NCBI RefSeq assembly: GCF_000372725.1
Contig: NW_005201851.1
Coordinates: 405,179 to 469,178 of the forward strand
Direction of reading: 5' to 3'
Length of the DNA stretch: 64,000 nucleotides
Source: Emiliania huxleyi CCMP1516
Lineage: Eukaryota
Part shown: in pieces, positions 10,422-19,281 of the stretch
How the letters are laid out: each line of letters starts with the position of its first letter
Position numbering within the stretch: the first letter of the stretch is position 1
The notes under the pieces: generated by a model
The model's database searches: none
Seen by the model: the letters and a program-made list of their open reading frames with translations, nothing else
What the model was told of the DNA's origin: nothing
Made by a program: the position numbers and the translations under genes

Positions 10422-10582
10422 GGCTCTCTGCGGATCGCTCGGTGCGAGGTGTGCGGCCGGCAGGCAGCAAAAAAGACTTTTTAATGCGCGTCTCTTTTCT
10501 TTTCGCAGGCGGCGGCGCGGCAAATCCCGCGGGGTGGGCAGCGATTTCGGGCCTGGGGTTGTGCGTTTGAGTGAGCCAGCCG

Positions 10583-11830
10583 ATGGAGAGCGCGGCAGAT
10601 TATTCGCCGCTTGTGCTTGAGGACCCCGACCTGCTCTGCACAATCCTCGCGCAGCTCCCGGACGCGCACGCACTCGTTGCGGCGGCAGCGGTCGCACGGC
10701 TGTGGCGCGTTCAGGGCCGCGACGACCGCGTGTGGCGCGCCCTCTACCGCAAGGTCTGGGGTCCGCGGGTGGGGTCGGCGGAGCCGCCGCTGCGCGACGT
10801 CCGCGTGGGCTGTTTCGTCGAGCTCTCCGGGCTGACTGCGAGGCCAGACCTGAACGGTCGGGTGGCGCAGGTGTTGGACAATGAGGCGGACGGGACGTGG
10901 AGAGTCAAACCCGTGAATCTCGTCGCGTGGGAACGGTACCTTCGAGATCAGATCGAGGTGATGACCCGCGCTTATTCCCTCCCTCCCCTGTTTGGAGAGA
11001 CCCTCAGCGCAGAAGACTACGCCGCCTCAACTCTTGACGAGGAAGCGCTCCACGTGCAGCCGCAGAATTTGCACGGACAGTGGCGGCTTCGCTTCCGACG
11101 CCGCCACACTGGCTTCGAGTTTGTAAACCTGCTGGGCGGATCGGGGCAGGTGCAGGTCGACGAACACGGCTTCTCGACGGCCGTCGGCCTACAGACCTTG
11201 ACGTACAGACACCATGGTCTCGTGCTGCGCGGCCGCCGCCCGCTCCAGTTTATCGAGGACGAGCTCGCGTACTTTGAGGTCTCCACGAGCGCCTCTTCGG
11301 TCGGCGTCACGGTCGGCTCGGCGTACGATGGACAGCGTGCACTGCACATCGGCTGGCGGAGCACGGCGTACGGCTACCACAGCGATGACGGCGCGAAGTG
11401 GCGCCACGACGCGGTCGCGGGCCCTCGCACGAACGGCGCGATCATGAACGGCGTCACCTTCGGTGAGCCCTTCGGGGGCCACCGCGGCTCAGCGGTCGAC
11501 ACGGTGGGCTGCGGGCTCGACCTACGCCGCCGCTCCGTCTTCTTCACAAAGAATGGCAAGCTGCAGGGCACTGCCTTTGAGAACTGCTGCCTGTCCCGAC
11601 TTTGCCCCCGACTTTACCCGACGGTGGCGCTGCACGAGGACGGTGACCGCTGCCGCTTCAACTTCGGAGCAGAGCCCTTCCTCTTCGACATCGCTGCGTT
11701 TGCGGTGAGCGACGCGCGGTCGGCCGGCGTGATTGGCGGCGGCGAGCTCCCGACGCCGGAGACCGAGGACGACGGCTCGGACGACGACGACTCGGACGAC
11801 GATGACTCGGACGACTCCGACGACGAGTAG
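10583..11830 (+). CDS. F-box + SPRY domain protein with acidic tail
   Basis: F-box DPDLLCTILAQLP...AAAVARLWR. SPRY motifs YFEV, YGYHSDDG, DTVGCGLD, VFFTKNG, LYPTV, FNFGAEPFLFD. Confidence 0.85.
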   Translation: MESAADYSPLVLEDPDLLCTILAQLPDAHALVAAAAVARLWRVQGRDDRVWRALYRKVWGPRVGSAEPPLRDVRVGCFVELSGLTARPDLNGRVAQVLDNEADGTWRVKPVNLVAWERYLRDQIEVMTRAYSLPPLFGETLSAEDYAASTLDEEALHVQPQNLHGQWRLRFRRRHTGFEFVNLLGGSGQVQVDEHGFSTAVGLQTLTYRHHGLVLRGRRPLQFIEDELAYFEVSTSASSVGVTVGSAYDGQRALHIGWRSTAYGYHSDDGAKWRHDAVAGPRTNGAIMNGVTFGEPFGGHRGSAVDTVGCGLDLRRRSVFFTKNGKLQGTAFENCCLSRLCPRLYPTVALHEDGDRCRFNFGAEPFLFDIAAFAVSDARSAGVIGGGELPTPETEDDGSDDDDSDDDDSDDSDDE

Positions 11831-12142: not shown

Positions 12143-13943
12143 CGTCTGGGGGGGCGACCCCCCCATCTTTGTTTACCGAATGCGTCTCTGGATTAGAGTG
12201 CGTCTAGTAGGCCTCCTACTTAGACGCTCGCTGTCCTCGGTATGCTCGAGCATCCTAAGATGCGCGAGTCTATATTAGTTGCTCCGCGCATCCCGAATTG
12301 CTCGCGGCATCTCCGATTGGCGTTGCTGTCTCAAAAGACGCGCCGTGCATACTGTGAACAGCGCGTGTCTCAGAAGACGCGCGCATATTTTGAACAGCGT
12401 GTGGATCTCAAGAAATACACGCACGTATAAAAACAAAAAAGAAAACGAAAACTCGGTGTGGCGAGCGCTGCGCGGCGGGCCGTGCCCCCGGCTGTGCGCC
12501 GCGGCTGCTGCGCTACTACTCGCACAGCCGCGGCGCGCCCACCCGAGCACTCGTGGGTGGGCGCCCTATAGCCTCTCCGCGCAACGTGCTGGGGCACGGA
12601 CAGCGGCTCTCACGTGTGGCAGCGGCAGCAGGCCCACCGCTGCACCGACTCACACTGAACAGCACGCACAGGACACAGTCACAGAACACTGCCCCTGACG
12701 CCACTCACGGCCACGGGCTACTCAGACTTGGACACAGGCACCTCGCTTAGCACTCCGTGCACGTGGCTGCCGGTTGCCGTCACCAGCGCCGCTTCCTGCC
12801 CAGATCAAACACCTGCGACGTGGCGGAGGCGATGAGCGGCCCGCGGTCGCCGTGAGAGCGCGCGTGGTGGGCGACGGCTCACCGATCGAGCGGAAGCGGT
12901 CACGCTGTGGGGGCGGCGGAAGCGGTCACGCTGTGGGGGCGGCGGCGAGGCGGGCAAGCCACCCGCAGATCCCCAGAAGGACGCCGTCGCGAGGTCGAGG
13001 GCGGGCGGCGGGGGCGGCGAGAGCGAGGCGCGAGGCGCGAGGCGGTGTTGGCGGCGGCGGTGGCGCGGGCGGCGGCGGTCACGGAGCGGGGGCGAGAGGG
13101 TGGTGGCGAGCAAGACACCCGTGCGCGCTGCGCGGTCGCCGTTCTGACTCACATGCCTGCGGACAGCGCCGACGGGTGGTGAGGAGGGCGGCGAGCCGGC
13201 GGGCACGGTGTGCGCGCGGTCGCCGCGCGCTGGTGGGCGACAGCTCACCGAGTCGGGATGCCCGGTCCCTCAAATCGCCAAGTCAAACAAGAAAAACCGC
13301 GCAGGTGGCCGACTCTCGGAAGTACGCTGTCTTCCGTGTCTAGGCGCACGCCCACGCCCTCAGCCTCGAACTGGCCCCGCTACCTGCCGCGCAAACTGGT
13401 TGGTGGGGGGGGGAGGCGGCGTCGCCGTCGGATCGTCGTAAGCAGTGCATGCAACTTTGGTCTTTGCGCCCAGAGCTCGTGGCGCGAGCAGATGCATGCG
13501 CGGTGCTGAGAACCTGGTTCTCCAGGAGGGGCAGGCCGCGAGGAGAGACCTCACACGAGCACTCAAGGCAGGGCCCCCAGGGGGTGCCGAGAGATCACAC
13601 CGCCTTTTCGTGCTCCCTGGCTCCCTGCTCCCCCCTCGGTGCCCGGTGCACCCGACACACGGTGTCTCCTGAGACGCTTCCCTGTCCAAGTATAGTAAAA
13701 TGTGATCTAGTATGCAAGTGCCATCTCAGAACAGCTGTGCATCTATAGATGCTTGTGGCGTCTAAGATGGAACGCGTAACAAAAGACACGGCGCGGCTAT
13801 CTCCAGGACAGCCATCGCATCCTAGAATGCCCTGTGTACCCGAGACACATGGTATCTTTGAGATGAAAAGTGCGTCCTAGAATGCGTTTTTGCATTCTAG
13901 GACGCATCGGTAAACAAAGATGGGGGGGTCGCCCCCCCAGACG
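12143..13943. mobile_element. Non-autonomous TIR DNA element (~1.8 kb) with a putative 3-bp TSD (ACA)
   Basis: ~45-bp TIRs CGTCTGGGGGGGCGACCCCCCCATCTTTGTTTACCGA(A)TGCGTC at both ends; ACA at 12140-12142 and 13944-13946; no transposase ORF seen. Confidence 0.8.
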
Positions 13944-14221
13944 ACAGCGCCCAGGCCGCAATTTCCCGCAAGACCTCGACCTGCTCTCGTCCTGCTGCTG
14001 CGAGCCTGCGTGCTGGGGTCGAGCTGCGGGCTGCCGTCTTGTGCCGACCGCGACCGGGGGGCGGGGGGTCGGAGTGGTGTTTTGATGCAATGAATATAGG
14101 GACTTGTGATATACAATGAAAGGGATTCGGAAGAAGCGCGACGTCCGACGACCTCACGGACCTGATTGCTGACATTAACTGCTCCACACACACGATGCTC
14201 AGACCCCGGGGGCCTGGGAAA

Positions 14222-17102
14222 TTACACCGCCTTGTCCTGCCGGGGTGGCGCGGGGCGACTGGCGCGGAGAGCGAGGGCGAGCGTGACGAGCCGCTCGACG
14301 AGTTCGCCTGCAGCAGAGGGCAAACGCGGTGTGTGCCGCGGAGACGCGGGCGGGGGCGGGGGGACGCGCGCTGAGCACACCGACGCGTCCGACCCAGCGC
14401 GAGTCGGGCAGCAGATCGCCCGTGGCGGCATCGAAGCATGGCTCCTCGAAGCGGCGGATCGCAACCTCGGGCGCGTTGACAAAGGTGACGTCGATGAACG
14501 ACCCGATCTGACGCAGCGCCTGCTGCCCCCGCACGCCGCCGCCGCCGCCGCCCGACGAGAGGATGGCGCCCGCCTTGCCCGCCCAGAGGTTGCCTTGCGT
14601 CGGCACGCGGGAGGCCCAATCGATGGCATTCTTCAGCGCCGCAGAGATCGAGTAGTTGTGCTCTGGGCAGGCAAAGAGCACCGCGTCGGCCGAGCTGACG
14701 GCGGCGCGCCAGCTGCTGACGGCTCCTCGTGTCGATCCGCCCGCCTCGTCGAGGTCCTGCGAGTAGAGCGGCAGGTCGCCTGCTCACACAGAGCCGCGGT
14801 GAGACGCCCTCGACTGCGGCCCTCCCGCGGGGAGGAGAGCAGCAGGTGTACCGATGGTGGCGAGACGCAGCTCCACGCCGCGCTGCCGCGCCGCCACCGC
14901 CGCAACACGCAGCAAGCCAGCGTTGGTGGAGGCGGCGCGCAGCGAGCCGCAGACGCCCAAGAGCACGAGCGGAGGCCAGGCATCCGGCAGCGGCAGCGTG
15001 TCCGGCGGCGCAGAGGCCGGCGCGGCGGCGGGAGGCTTGGCGGCCTCCGGGTTGCGCTTTTGCGGCCGCTGCTCAGAGCGCCGCGCCTGAGGCGGGAGGC
15101 CGGGTCGGAGATCGGAGCACCGCAATCGGCGGGAGTCTTGTGCGTGTGTGTGTGTGCGTGTGTGTGTGTGTGTGCGTGCGTGCATGCGTGCGTGCGTGCG
15201 TGCGTGTGTGTGTGCGTGTGTGCATGTGTGTGTGTGCGGGCGCTTGTGGGTGCGTGGGAGGTGGGGGGCGCCGGCGCCTTGTGACGGATCGCTATCGTGC
15301 CCGACCCTACCACGGCACCCGTCACGCGAGCGGCGGCCGCGGCCGCCGCAGCAAACGAGGGCGACCTCGGCCGCTCGATCGGCGTCTCGCTCACCTAGCG
15401 CACGGGCGGGCGAGGCGCGGAGATGCTGCCGGGCGGGCGCCAGGCCTTTGCCTTTGGGGCCCGCGGCGAGAGGGAGGCTGGCGTGGCGACACGCGGGGCA
15501 GAGGAAGTGGAGGCGAGGAGGTGGGAGGAGCTGGCGGGTGCGAGAGAGGAGGGCGGTGTTGTGAGGAGATGGTGAGGAGGAGGTGGTGAGGAGGTGGTGA
15601 GGTGGGGAGGGGGCGGGGAGGGGGCGGGGAGGGGGCGGGGAGGGGGCGGGGAGTCACCTCGCTCGCGTCGCAAGAGACGCTCAGCTCGCGAGTCAGCTCG
15701 CGAGGCGTATGCGGCGAGCCGGTCCCGTTGGTCGTGTCTCCCACCGCCGCCGCGCCCGCGCCGTTGGGCGCCCACGGCGGCGGCTTGGCTCCGCGGTACA
15801 TGGAGGGGGAAGGAAGGGGCGACTTGTCAAAGTCCTTCGAGCGGCCGCGCGAGCGGCGCGACTTGGGCGACTGCTTCGTCGGCGACGAGGCGCCCGACCG
15901 GCTTCGAAAGGACGCCGCCTATCGGAAGGCTCGGAGCAGGCTGCAGGAGGTCGCAAGACAAGTCCCGACCGGCCGTGCAGCGACGCCGCCGGCTTTGGCG
16001 AGCCGTTCGGCGGCGCGGAGCTCTTGGAGGTTGGCGTCGCCGGCCTGGCGCGCGCCGCGGCGCCCGAGGCCGCGCCATCTCCCGAGGCAGCCCTCTCTGG
16101 CGCCTGTGCTGCTGGCTCTGCGGCTGCTGGCTCTGCGGCTGCCGCCGAGGAGAGGAGGCTCGAGGATGAGCCCCCCGTCCCAAAGTCGTACTTGCCTCCT
16201 CCGGCGCGCATGGTCTGCATGAAGTGGGGCTTGCAGTAGACTCCGCCGGACAGGTCCATGCACCTGCGGCGCGACAGAGCGAGGCGGGCAGCGGGGAGGG
16301 GAGTGAGAGGACGGGGCGAGGGGAGGGTCGCGAGCCACACGCTGGGAGGGCGGTCCAGGCAACCGCGGCGGTGGTGGCGGCGCGTGCTCGCGCGCGGTCG
16401 GACGTGTTCGCGCGTGGGGGGCCGGCCGCGCCAGTTGGAGGGCGAGAGCTTGATGTTGCACTCGATGCAGCGGAAGCAGGTGTTGTGGAAGACCTGATCC
16501 TTGGCGCTCACGCGCTCGGCCGCGTACACGGTCTTGTTGCAGCGCGTACACTTCTCGCCGCCGCCGCCGAACCGGCCGAACGACGAAGAGCGCATGATCT
16601 TGGAGCCGGAGCGCGGCGCCGGCGAGGCGGTGGCCGGAGCCGGGACGGGAGTGCACACCGGAGCCGGTCCCGGAGTCGGTGCGGGAGAGGACACGTGTGC
16701 AGGCGATCGAGTCTCGCCGTGGGCGGTGGCCGGAGCGAGCGGCCTCTGCGGCGTCGCGGCCGCCTTACCGTTGCTGCTGTCGCTTCGGCGCGGCGTGGAC
16801 GGCGGTGACCGTTCCGATTCGGTGTTGACAGTCAGAGTGCCGCCAGACGTCTTGAGCGCCTGCATGAAGTGCGGCTTGCACCACAGCCCGCCGCACGGGT
16901 CCATGCACCAGGACGACAGCGTGAGCTTCACGTTGCACTCCTTGCACCGAAAGCACGCGACGTGGAAGATCTTGTCCTGCGCGACCGCCCTCTCCGCCAC
17001 GTACACCGTCTTGGCGCAGAGCGCGCACTTCTCGCCGCCGCCGCCGTAGCGGCCGAACGAAGAGGAGCGGCGCACCAGCGCGGGCCTCTCGTTCTCGGAC
17101 AT
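14222..17102 (-). CDS. Multi-exon protein: two LIM domains + Ser/Pro linker + NADPH-dependent FMN reductase (flavodoxin-like) domain
   Basis: LIM: CALCAKTVYVAER...FHVACFRCKEC...WCKPHF and CTRCNKTVYAAER...FHNTCFRCIEC...YCKPHF. Reductase: GVCGSLRAASTN, DLPLYSQD, ADAVLFACPEHNYSISAALKNAIDWASR, WAGKAGAI. Exons join in frame through GC/GT-AG introns. Confidence 0.7.
15138..15237. repeat. (GT)n/(GTGC)n microsatellite in an intron
   Basis: Seen directly. Confidence 0.9.
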
Positions 17103-17861
17103 TTGTAACCCACAGCTACACAGCGCCTAGTTCCTACCAAAAGGTGCATGCAAAAGAAAATCGTCGTGGCCACGCATCATGCTGCGCATTGGCGAGCAAT
17201 CGCGTAACGGAGGGCTGCGATCCAGGCTGCGTCTTATTTGGGCCGCCTTTTGGCGACTTCTTGCGCCTCCCTTTCTCTCTTGCCTTTTTTTTTAGAGCGC
17301 CTTCGTTGTTAATAGTACAAGCCCAATGGTCCCTTGCAAGCGGTCCCTTGTCGCAGTCGCACACACGCACACGCCGCGCCGCACCGCGCGCCCGCCCGCT
17401 GCCCCGCCCAGGCGGGAAAGAGATGAGCTTTTTTTCCATGCGGATGTGACCGCGCGAGGTGGCATGAAGGTTGCTGCGAGAATCAGACGACCTGGTCCTT
17501 TTTCGGGGTTATCAGGCACATAAGGGCGGCGAGGGTGTGATGCTGATGGCTGACGCCTCCGCCCGGCTCTGCGCGTCTGCTGGAGTGCCTTGGCGACGCT
17601 GGTGACGTCGGAGTGACCCGGCACCTGCTTGTGGTGTGGGGTCTTACACAGTGCTTGACATAAGAGGGCGATCTGTCCTGATCCCAGGACTGATGGTGAT
17701 GCTTGGTAGCTACCCACATTCGCTTCACTCGACCAACAGACCCACCCTCGGCGGTGGCCGCCGCAACCTCTTGATAATAATTTAAATGATAAGTCACGAA
17801 GCAGCCATCGTAGAGAGTGGCACGAAAGAGTGCAAGCCCCCCCCCCCCCCCCCGGGGGGCC

Positions 17862-19281
17862 ATGCTTTTGACGGATTCTGAGCACTTGCGCGAGACCTTG
17901 GAGCCCTTGGAGTGCAATTATCAACCGCACATCCAGGGCCGGGGAGCTCAGAAGCGCCAGACCGAATTTTTTTACGGGGTGCCGTTGGCGCGTTGTCGCC
18001 TTCCGCGTTTTCCCTCCTCTCCAGCGTGTCTTCGATGGGCTGGGCAGCGACGACAACCATCATTTCGGCGCCCGAGGCGGCTGCCAAACGCGCGTGGACG
18101 ACCCTCCAGAGCAATTTCGAAAGCTACAGAGAAGGCGAATGCGGTTCCTATGAGTTGGATGCGGGCCTCGCTATGGGCAAGGGGCAGGTGCGCAGACACT
18201 GAGCAAGACGGGTCCTCACTGCGGCTATTCTGACCCGCTACTGGAGGAGCTCAGCGCCATGCGGCACGTCGGCAGCAAACTTGGCCTTTTCGCCCGCGGC
18301 GATATACCATCGGTCGCGAGTCAGCCACCAGATCCACGGGTCCAGCTCCTCTCTGCAGATGAAGACGAGGGCTTCCACTACTGGTGGATGGCGCCTGCGA
18401 GCGCCTTGCTGGAGTCCGGTGGCAGCACGTCCGCCGCTTCGCAGCCCGGTGCAATTAGTCTGGCTTGCATCAAATGTGGCGCAAGCGTGCACCTGCGGGG
18501 TGCACAGTTTTGTGGCACCTGCGGCGAGCGGCTTCCGTCGACCAGCGAAGACGCGGGACGCACCGGCCTCCTCGTCCGTCTCCGCCGCGAGCTCGGCCAG
18601 GCAATGCAAGCGGTCAGCTACGCGCAGCCGGGGGTGCGCCAGGTGGATGGCACGTCTGGTATGCTCTTCAAGCACAACGGGCCACACAGGCGGCGCGCCG
18701 ACGAGTACGCGTTGCCAGTGCGCCAGCAGCTCGCCACGGCGCTGGACGCCCTCAGCAAGCCCGTCGCACAGCCTGCACAGGGCAACGAGCTCAGCTCGTC
18801 CATCAAAGCGGCCCGCGCCGCCCTGCGCGCGTGGGACTCGCGCGACGACGAGCTGGAGGAACGGCGGCGGGGTCGGGACTTTGGCGGCGCCTATGGCGAC
18901 GATGATCCCGACGACCCCGACGACGATGAGGACGACTGCTACGGCTACGGCGGCGGCAGAGTCTGTTTCCAATTCCGCGACCAGGGATGGTGCAGCTACG
19001 GCTCGAGCTGCAGATACCGCCACCCGCGCTACCCGGCCGGCTGCCGCCGGGACTGCCTCGATTGTGGCTTCGCCGTGCGGCAGGCACTCAAGCTCTGCTC
19101 GGAGCACCTTGGTGAGGTGGAGGATGCGCTACAGATTGTCCGGCAGCCTTTCGTCTCCGATGGCGAGATGATTGCGGCCGCCGCCCAGCGCGAGCAGGTG
19201 GCCGGCGTCGCCGGTTTCCTTACGCGTGCGGCGGCTCTAGGCCATTTTGTTCTCATCAACCACGACAACGAAGGCTGCTGA
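17862..19281 (+). CDS. Zinc-ribbon + CCCH zinc-finger protein (5' exons tentative)
   Basis: CIKCGASVHLRGAQFCGTCGERL and CFQFRDQGWCSYGSSCRYRH (C-x8-C-x5-C-x3-H) in the main exon 18259-19281. Confidence 0.65.

Follow-up and report, generated by a model that had tools for sequence, protein, structure and literature searches.

Few known LIM proteins carry an enzyme, the known cases being LIM kinase and MICAL. The MICAL class is defined by a flavin adenine dinucleotide (FAD) monooxygenase, a CH domain and C-terminal domains, and the monooxygenase, which is the catalytic domain, is described as being itself required for F-actin binding (PMC3305314). MICAL is reported to be confined to animals in a LIM survey of nine proteomes. 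CRP1 and tobacco WLIM2 are described as bundling actin directly (PMC1318456, PMC3603003), and enzymes of the ChrR/NQR family as performing a two-electron reduction that minimises the formation of radicals and reactive oxygen species (ROS), ChrR being an obligate oligomer with flavin mononucleotide (FMN) at its subunit interfaces (PMC3338774). Here we analyzed a stretch of 64,000 nt of the Emiliania huxleyi CCMP1516 genome (contig NW_005201851.1, positions 405,179 to 469,178), called the window below, whose minus strand carries between 17102 and 14222 one spliced gene with a single frame in which two LIM domains are fused to a ChrR/NQR-type FMN reductase.

The gene consists of seven exons separated by three GC-AG and three GT-AG introns (Table 1). 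The joined exons comprise 2043 nt and give one frame of 680 amino acids (aa) with a single stop, encoding LIM1, a Pro/Ser spacer, LIM2, a disordered linker of 230 aa and the reductase, in this order; the GC content of third codon positions was 0.79-0.89 across all exons. The database protein P0095 (680 aa, recorded on 2 contigs, the longest of 2236 nt) was identical to the model at 674 of 680 residues with no gap. Pfam analysis of P0095 revealed LIM twice, at 72.5 bits against a cut-off of 22.9, and FMN_red, at 124 bits against 24; its maximum Kyte-Doolittle 19-mer value, 1.38, did not indicate a signal peptide or membrane anchor. In the same cluster the annotated protein EOD39867 was identical to aa 355-680 at 326 of 326 residues and EOD18036 at 325. 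Public E. huxleyi models cover residues 355-680 only, starting at Met355 in exon 3, and miss the LIM half.

The transcript evidence was taken from a run search that listed 14 runs, ten of which held 58-64% of the words; contigs of eight of these ten were aligned with the gene. They were divided into set A (X8, X9 and X10 of study P5 and X6 of study P2) and set B (X1, X2, X3 and X5, from four studies). The runs are not recorded as RNA, a status that was deduced from the removal of introns. In all four set A runs a single contig of 2158-2187 nt, unbranched over the seven exons, carried them in order with the six introns spliced out. Removal of each intron was observed in five to eight of the eight runs (Table 1), the remaining runs showing a contig break or an unlisted joint; for intron 3 it was read from adjacent record positions and not from listed joint rows. 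Nine exon variants present in set B contigs created no stop.

The initial annotation had joined the exons by hand and placed phase-0 joins between exons 3, 4 and 5; the named exons and both joins were present in the spliced contigs. By conceptual translation, retention of intron 2 or intron 3 would lead to a stop at aa 414 or aa 491, respectively. Use of a GT donor near 15969 had been named as an observation that would speak against the fusion. This donor, which would give a 51-nt intron and a stop at aa 397, formed a joint in none of the eight runs; it was rejected as a real splice site and the fusion stands. A skip of 110 nt in X3 (14990-15101) was also rejected as splicing, since it has no AG end and occurred once. 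The claim that the reductase has no convincing start codon of its own held as well: exons 4 and 5 contain no ATG, the sole in-frame ATG near the reductase (15185) lies within the CA repeat of intron 4, and the spliced contigs, the full-length database protein and the orthologs described below support it.

Two further lineages carry the same architecture. Exon 6, used as a query against longer proteins, yielded 90 matches from 1104 candidates, and LIM was among the precomputed domains of one of the 90, P0003, which is 68% identical to the window protein over exon 6. The P0003 cluster has three members of 583-600 aa (P0098 and P0099 included), each of them LIM-LIM-FMN_red. When 50%-representatives were searched with the reductase domain, the best single-domain match was P0119 (64%, partial). 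It clusters with P0268, which represents a third fusion and is one gene call of 595 aa on a contig of 26.5 kb that is probably intronless genomic DNA. P0003 and P0268 are 77% identical (436/566 columns) and each is 54-56% identical to P0095; our guess is that both come from related haptophytes. Among database proteins LIM with FMN_red was found in two lineages besides P0095, and the LIM-LIM-reductase order is common to all three. In P0098 the C-terminal tail is altered and Asp replaces a Gly in the Gly-rich loop of the reductase, changes that could reflect an error or an allele in decay.

The identity to P0095 was 67-68% in LIM1, 24-26% in the spacer, 80-82% in LIM2, 20-22% in the linker and 63-65% in the reductase. 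The domains are thus conserved well above spacer and linker, which argues that all three domains are under joint selection. In the linker, whose length varies from about 145 to 230 aa among fusion proteins, the sole invariant run longer than three residues is RRSEQRP, just past the exon 4/5 junction and preceded by Arg-His; a basic island with a net charge of +5 to +6 over 30 residues occurs there.

The claimed fusion was thus borne out by spliced contigs, by a full-length database protein and by two divergent orthologs. Two separate genes, united only through hand splicing or contig assembly, would fit public models that begin at Met355, and the contigs are indeed assemblies and not single molecules, from runs whose RNA status is a guess. 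Against this stand the six canonical introns removed in frame, the 680-aa protein recorded on 2 contigs and the single gene call of P0268. This artefact is already largely refuted and we regard it as exceedingly improbable.

The other nearest reductases are not fused to LIM. LIM was found in none of the 62 Pfam-scanned proteins (47 after the top match plus 15 longer ones) out of 150 reductase representatives, the 87 outside the scan being all of 221 aa or less; the remaining one, P0001, is a protein of 762 aa with four FMN_red domains and without a recorded LIM. Tandem repeats of this kind also occur in P0125 (at least 2 in 459 aa). Two further protein searches gave no additional fusion, LIM with reductase being present in one of 20 proteins (the query itself) and one of 30 (P0003). 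A metagenome scan reduced 223 pattern matches to 13 loci, one of which, L001, is an allele of the present gene ending before the reductase; the other 12 were distant LIM sequences with no reductase match. At 427-1002 this environmental allele shows an in-frame loss of 96 nt (32 aa) in the LIM1-LIM2 spacer, and its sequence departs from that of the window immediately before the ATG, in agreement with a loose end seen in run X1.

A quick tree built from 83 reductase domains united the fusion rows in one branch (SH-aLRT 98), which included P0126, a fragment with no N-terminus. A wider, weakly supported group had a green alga, two choanoflagellates and MMETSP transcripts as named neighbours. The tree omits P0120, representatives ranked below P0190 and rows with fewer than 130 matched positions, several of its plant and bacterial labels are guessed, and the root and the deep branching order lie outside what it tests. 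In all three lineages the LIM1 sequences clustered with one another, as did the LIM2 sequences. On these sequence comparisons the most likely origin is one lineage-restricted fusion, of a haptophyte-type LIM-LIM gene with a eukaryotic NQR-like gene. The nearest named stand-alone relatives are eukaryotic, and a recent transfer of the reductase from bacteria is therefore disfavoured, although the deep branches are weak.

Both LIM domains retain all eight zinc ligands, the last being His. Their assignment to the CRP/plant WLIM/MICAL type was supported by the spliced contigs, the full-length protein and the orthologs. The best solved matches of LIM1 were EPLIN (5e-17) and LIMD2 (3e-16), followed by CRP1, CRP2 and then MICAL1; LIM-homeobox and LMO domains scored far below the actin-associated LIM classes. 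The motif RSSSFGR(Y/F)GGGGEK, reported earlier before each LIM, is present in the sequence at both sites, and in the three lineages the full motif is invariant solely before LIM2. Its GGGGEK half aligns with the lead-in of CRP1 and CRP2 and is also found in unfused LIM proteins. Both LIMs are followed by Gly-containing tails; the CRP1 and CRP2 alignments of LIM1 end at the LIM boundary, and the ten residues following LIM1 align with EPLIN and LIMD2. An extra non-ligand Cys was present in 6/6 fusion LIMs and likewise in the two nearest unfused proteins (6/6 LIMs), and in 0/14 others.

With the CRP/CSRP and plant WLIM proteins the fusion protein shares two LIMs, a Gly-containing tail and a lead-in that is rich in Gly and can be aligned with CRP1/CRP2. 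It differs in its spacer of about 90-105 aa, compared with about 50 described for CRP (PMC3305314), and in a last zinc ligand that is His together with a C-terminal enzyme of a kind that CRP and WLIM do not have. With EPLIN/LIMA1 and LIMD2, the best-scoring solved LIMs, it has CKPHF and the next helix in common; these proteins have one LIM and no enzyme, and the fusion matches the 22-residue EPLIN motif only partly. The nearest named LIM-LIM protein is P0104 of Chrysochromulina parva, which shares the LIM subtype, an FGGGG(E/Q)KC lead-in and the extra Cys, and is unfused, with an Ala/Lys/Glu-rich repeat at its C-terminus. The reductase was found in 0/6 scanned members of its 10-member cluster. 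The related LIM proteins P0100, P0101 and P0112 carry three or four FGGGGGEKC-LIM repeats or, in one of them, a RanBP zinc finger before two LIMs.

In the fusion proteins FMN_red scored 124-131 bits against the curated cut-off of 24. The closest solved relatives, by sequence and by fold, were 1rtt, Gh-ChrR, E. coli ChrR/YieF and FerB. A first fold prediction, from a 4-row alignment, was unusable (mean predicted local distance difference test score, pLDDT, 34); in the model from a 97-row alignment the block values of pLDDT were about 77-98 within the three domains and for the most part below 50 in the linkers. The template modelling score on the target ranged from 0.93 to 0.84 for 1rtt (0.93), Gh-ChrR and E. 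coli ChrR. The FMN ligands of E. coli ChrR are described as Ser13, Arg15, Ser18, Asn20, Glu82, Asn84 and Tyr85 (PMC3338774), and their equivalents S489, R491, S494, N496, E559, N561 and Y562 were invariant in 6/6 fusion rows; the position table used covers the alignment up to position 642, the last helix lying beyond it.

The domain shares with ChrR/YieF, 1rtt, Gh-ChrR and plant/algal NQR (PF03358) the flavodoxin fold, the GSLRxxSxN loop, PExNY and the KNAIDW helix. In the fold alignment it is 37-40% identical to 1rtt and Gh-ChrR, and its identity to named liverwort and green-algal proteins is about 47-49%. These relatives are stand-alone enzymes of about 190 aa, whereas the fusion reductase is preceded by 480 residues with two LIMs. 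The equivalog models of NCBIfam for ArsH and SsuE scored 19-33 bits, against cut-offs of 164-292. A further difference concerns the substrate side. Arg101 of Gh-ChrR is described as binding an anion and NADH, and the R101A variant as about 25-fold less efficient with chromate (PMC3412864). Its equivalent is R577 in the window protein and Arg in 79/91 stand-alone relatives, and Ala in 5/5 other fusion rows. Compared with ChrR/NQR, the fusion reductase has His in place of Tyr in the signature and, in two lineages, lacks this Arg.

The comparison with MICAL had been the basis of the function first proposed. MICAL1-3 resemble the fusion protein in carrying a flavoenzyme and a related LIM type on one chain, with one LIM in MICAL and two in the fusion. 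They have an N-terminal FAD monooxygenase, CH and bMERB; the fusion has a C-terminal FMN reductase of the flavodoxin fold. MICAL oxygenates, whereas the fusion enzyme is predicted to carry out two-electron reduction. In P0095 Pfam found only LIM, FMN_red and Flavodoxin_2, with no FAD monooxygenase, and it gave no match to CH or DUF3585/bMERB at E 0.01 (P0095, P0003 and P0098) or E 0.001 (P0268); MICAL1 aligned with the fusion protein through the LIM region only. Judged by its domains the fusion protein is not a MICAL, because the FAD monooxygenase, CH and C-terminal domains are absent. The initial annotation was correct in describing LIM domains to which another kind of flavoenzyme fold is tethered, an FMN flavodoxin fold on a single chain. 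The MICAL-like actin oxidation that it suggested was not supported, the enzyme belonging to the ChrR/NQR two-electron reductases and not to the FAD monooxygenases of MICAL.

A MICAL-like oxidant could still have arisen by convergence if the reduced FMN reacted with oxygen or was passed to a partner oxygenase, and the LIM tether brought peroxide or oxidation to actin and so promoted its disassembly. The fusion LIMs do resemble that of MICAL1 (E 1.4e-9 and 3.5e-8); EPLIN, LIMD2 and CRP, however, outscore it by far. Related ArsH enzymes produce H2O2; the ArsH and SsuE scores given above speak against membership in those families. Some ROS are described for Gh-ChrR with odd-electron substrates (PMC3412864), against the account of the ChrR class as minimising ROS (PMC3338774). 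With FAD monooxygenase, CH and bMERB not found by Pfam, we consider such an oxidant improbable.

The function that we favour, at somewhat less than even confidence, is that of an actin-tethered, oligomeric quinone/flavin reductase providing local redox protection and not actin oxidation. The LIM pair would bind and bundle F-actin, as CRP and plant WLIM proteins do, and the long disordered linker would tether the FMN enzyme to it and give it reach. The reductase would bind FMN and, by a ping-pong mechanism as in ChrR, use NAD(P)H for the two-electron reduction of quinone-like acceptors. If it formed dimers or tetramers like ChrR, each complex would hold 4-8 LIM domains on flexible arms; such complexes could cross-link filaments, and the reductase would protect the local cytoskeleton. 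The basic Ser motifs would be kinase sites tuning LIM binding. A functional parallel is NQO1, a two-electron quinone reductase described as held at the cytoskeleton on microtubules (PMC7772575, PMC8027776); it differs in belonging to another, FAD-using family, in contacting tubulin itself and in lacking a targeting domain. It is possible, though unlikely, that haptophytes made a second flavoenzyme-LIM invention independent of MICAL, an FMN hub coupling NAD(P)H/quinone redox to actin cross-linking. If true, this hub with 4-8 LIM arms would be a reductive counterpart of MICAL on the actin network serving scale and coccolith secretion.

Several points weigh against the tethered reductase. Actin binding, FMN binding and enzyme activity are predicted from the families of the domains. 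CRP and WLIM proteins are described as acting in the nucleus as well (PMC3603003, PMC3305314), and the conserved basic motif of the linker could be a nuclear signal. Given Ala for the R101 equivalent in the other fusion rows, the substrate, and even catalysis, may differ between fusion lineages. None of the four set B runs gave a whole-gene contig, their pieces being of unequal depth: the X1 contig covers exon 6 to exon 3, and the X2 and X5 contigs exon 1 to exon 3. Intron-retaining forms were seen as low-depth pieces of introns 1 and 3 and as P0093 (541 aa), which runs from LIM1 into intron 5, and shorter isoforms may accompany the full-length form. Contig depth cannot rank parts of the gene, and the depths of its halves in set B (reductase 100 and LIM 25 in X2; 62 and 146 in X3) were not used as isoform evidence.

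The broken contigs and retained introns of set B would also suit a tolerated fusion whose halves work independently, perhaps through cleavage or shorter isoforms, as would the poorly conserved linker and the occurrence of FMN_red, in the protein searches, fused to many unrelated domains. On the other hand, the fusion has been kept in lineages just 54-56% identical, the linker contains an invariant motif and all set A runs gave a single unbranched contig; independent halves appear very improbable.

The loss of the substrate-side Arg in two of three lineages, with FMN ligands invariant, raises the question of whether turnover is the main role. The protein could be a redox-sensitive oligomerising switch, in which the flavin/NAD(P)H state sets the clustering or exposure of the LIM arms and so tunes actin cross-linking, turnover being secondary. 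The obligate oligomer described for ChrR with FMN at its interfaces (PMC3338774), the redox-dependent conformation in which NQO1 is reported to bind microtubules (PMC7772575, PMC8027776) and the extra Cys of all 6 fusion LIMs fit this proposal. NQO1, however, belongs to a different flavodoxin-like family, and the extra Cys predates the fusion, because the closest unfused proteins carry it in 6/6 LIMs. The long disordered linker suits a tether better than allosteric coupling, and a switch seems unlikely.

The tethered reductase also presupposes that the LIM pair is bound to actin. If the partner were instead a transcription factor, DNA or an adaptor, the reductase would be brought to the nucleus or elsewhere, where it would protect partners in a redox-dependent manner. 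Both LIMs of tobacco WLIM2 are described as binding a histone promoter, and the protein as shuttling to the nucleus (PMC3603003); the sole conserved island of the linker is basic, and NQO1 is reported to shield proteins from 20S degradation (PMC8027776). Since the closest solved LIMs are actin-associated, with LIM-homeobox and LMO domains much lower, and the basic motif is only a putative nuclear signal, we find a non-actin partner rather doubtful.

No description of the LIM and FMN reductase architecture was found in the literature searched, a search that left aside long-read annotation files, subscription journals and InterPro architectures, and the same literature gave no mention of six gene accessions. 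A full-length model of the gene may already be present in a long-read E. huxleyi annotation. Literature on LIM domains, haptophytes and actin comprised only dynactin and myosin papers, none on the fusion, and in the 11 supplementary files searched of an E. huxleyi proteogenomics study (PMC10290126) a Pfam enrichment table had one LIM row and FMN reductase was absent. Both domains and LIM-enzyme fusions are already known; this combination is apparently undescribed. It represents a further LIM-enzyme design, with transcript-level support and in three lineages, that was masked by truncated models in a globally abundant alga, and it offers an expressible candidate for how the redox state reaches the haptophyte actin cytoskeleton. 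The secretion of biomineralised scales by haptophytes is described as needing actin (PMC5684398); the present data contain no link between the fusion gene and calcification.

Table 1. Features of the LIM-LIM-reductase gene in window coordinates; joint counts refer to the eight aligned runs.
Feature	Position	Strand	Evidence
Coding part of exon 1 (aa 1-224), from the ATG through LIM1 and a Pro/Ser/Thr-rich spacer to the first two-thirds of LIM2	16432..17102	-	model; contig starts 17094-17116
RSSSFGRYGGGGEK motif preceding LIM1, aa 12-25; diverged in other lineages save GGGG	17028..17069	-	alignment
LIM1, aa 26-78; eight zinc ligands complete, final one His; extra non-ligand Cys in WCMD	16869..17027	-	alignment
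RSSSFGRFGGGGEK motif preceding LIM2, aa 171-184; invariant across three lineages	16551..16592	-	alignment
LIM2, aa 185-237; interrupted by intron 1; best-conserved part (80-82% including flanks)	16224..16550	-	Pfam, alignment
Intron 1, GC-AG, 168 nt (170 nt in allele L001)	16264..16431	-	joint in 8/8 runs
Exon 2 (aa 224-315): completes LIM2, then encodes the Gly-rich tail and the beginning of the linker	15990..16263	-	model, contigs
Intron 2, GC-AG (GC donor 15989), 71 nt; removal shifts to the reductase-bound frame	15919..15989	-	joint in 6/8 runs
Exon 3: linker aa 316-402, including Met355	15658..15918	-	model, database proteins
Intron 3, GT-AG, 263 nt, C-rich repeats	15395..15657	-	bridged by a single contig in 5/8 runs
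Exon 4: linker aa 403-441	15278..15394	-	model, contigs
Intron 4, GC-AG, 191 nt, CA/CACG microsatellite	15087..15277	-	joint in 7/8 runs
Exon 5 (aa 442-520): runs from the conserved basic motif through the last part of the linker to beta1 and the FMN phosphate loop of the reductase	14852..15086	-	model
RRSEQRP, aa 443-449; Arg-His before it from exon 4	15063..15083	-	alignment
Intron 5, GT-AG, 72 nt; in-frame stop when retained	14780..14851	-	joint in 8/8 runs
Exon 6 (aa 520-653): core of the reductase, including PEHNY and KNAIDWASR	14381..14779	-	model
Intron 6, GT-AG, 73 nt	14308..14380	-	joint in 8/8 runs
Exon 7, coding part: final helix and TAA stop; contigs of most runs extend to about 14094-14107	14222..14307	-	model, contigs

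Other features of the window lie close to the gene. An open frame with F-box-like and SPRY domains occupies 10571-11830 on the plus strand, and another, divergent from the fusion gene, with weak matches to a zinc ribbon and a CCCH zinc finger, occupies 18154-19281 on the same strand. Numerous deep, divergent contigs were found at 17160-17485 and 13600-13945, which suggests that repeats flank the fusion gene on either side. An element of 1.8 kb at 12143-13943, ending about 280 nt downstream of the stop codon of the fusion gene, has perfect terminal inverted repeats of 37 nt with ACA at both ends, probably from a target duplication of 3 bp. In three runs contigs pass out of the window at 13943-13944 into different flanks, which makes a multi-copy non-autonomous DNA transposon likely.

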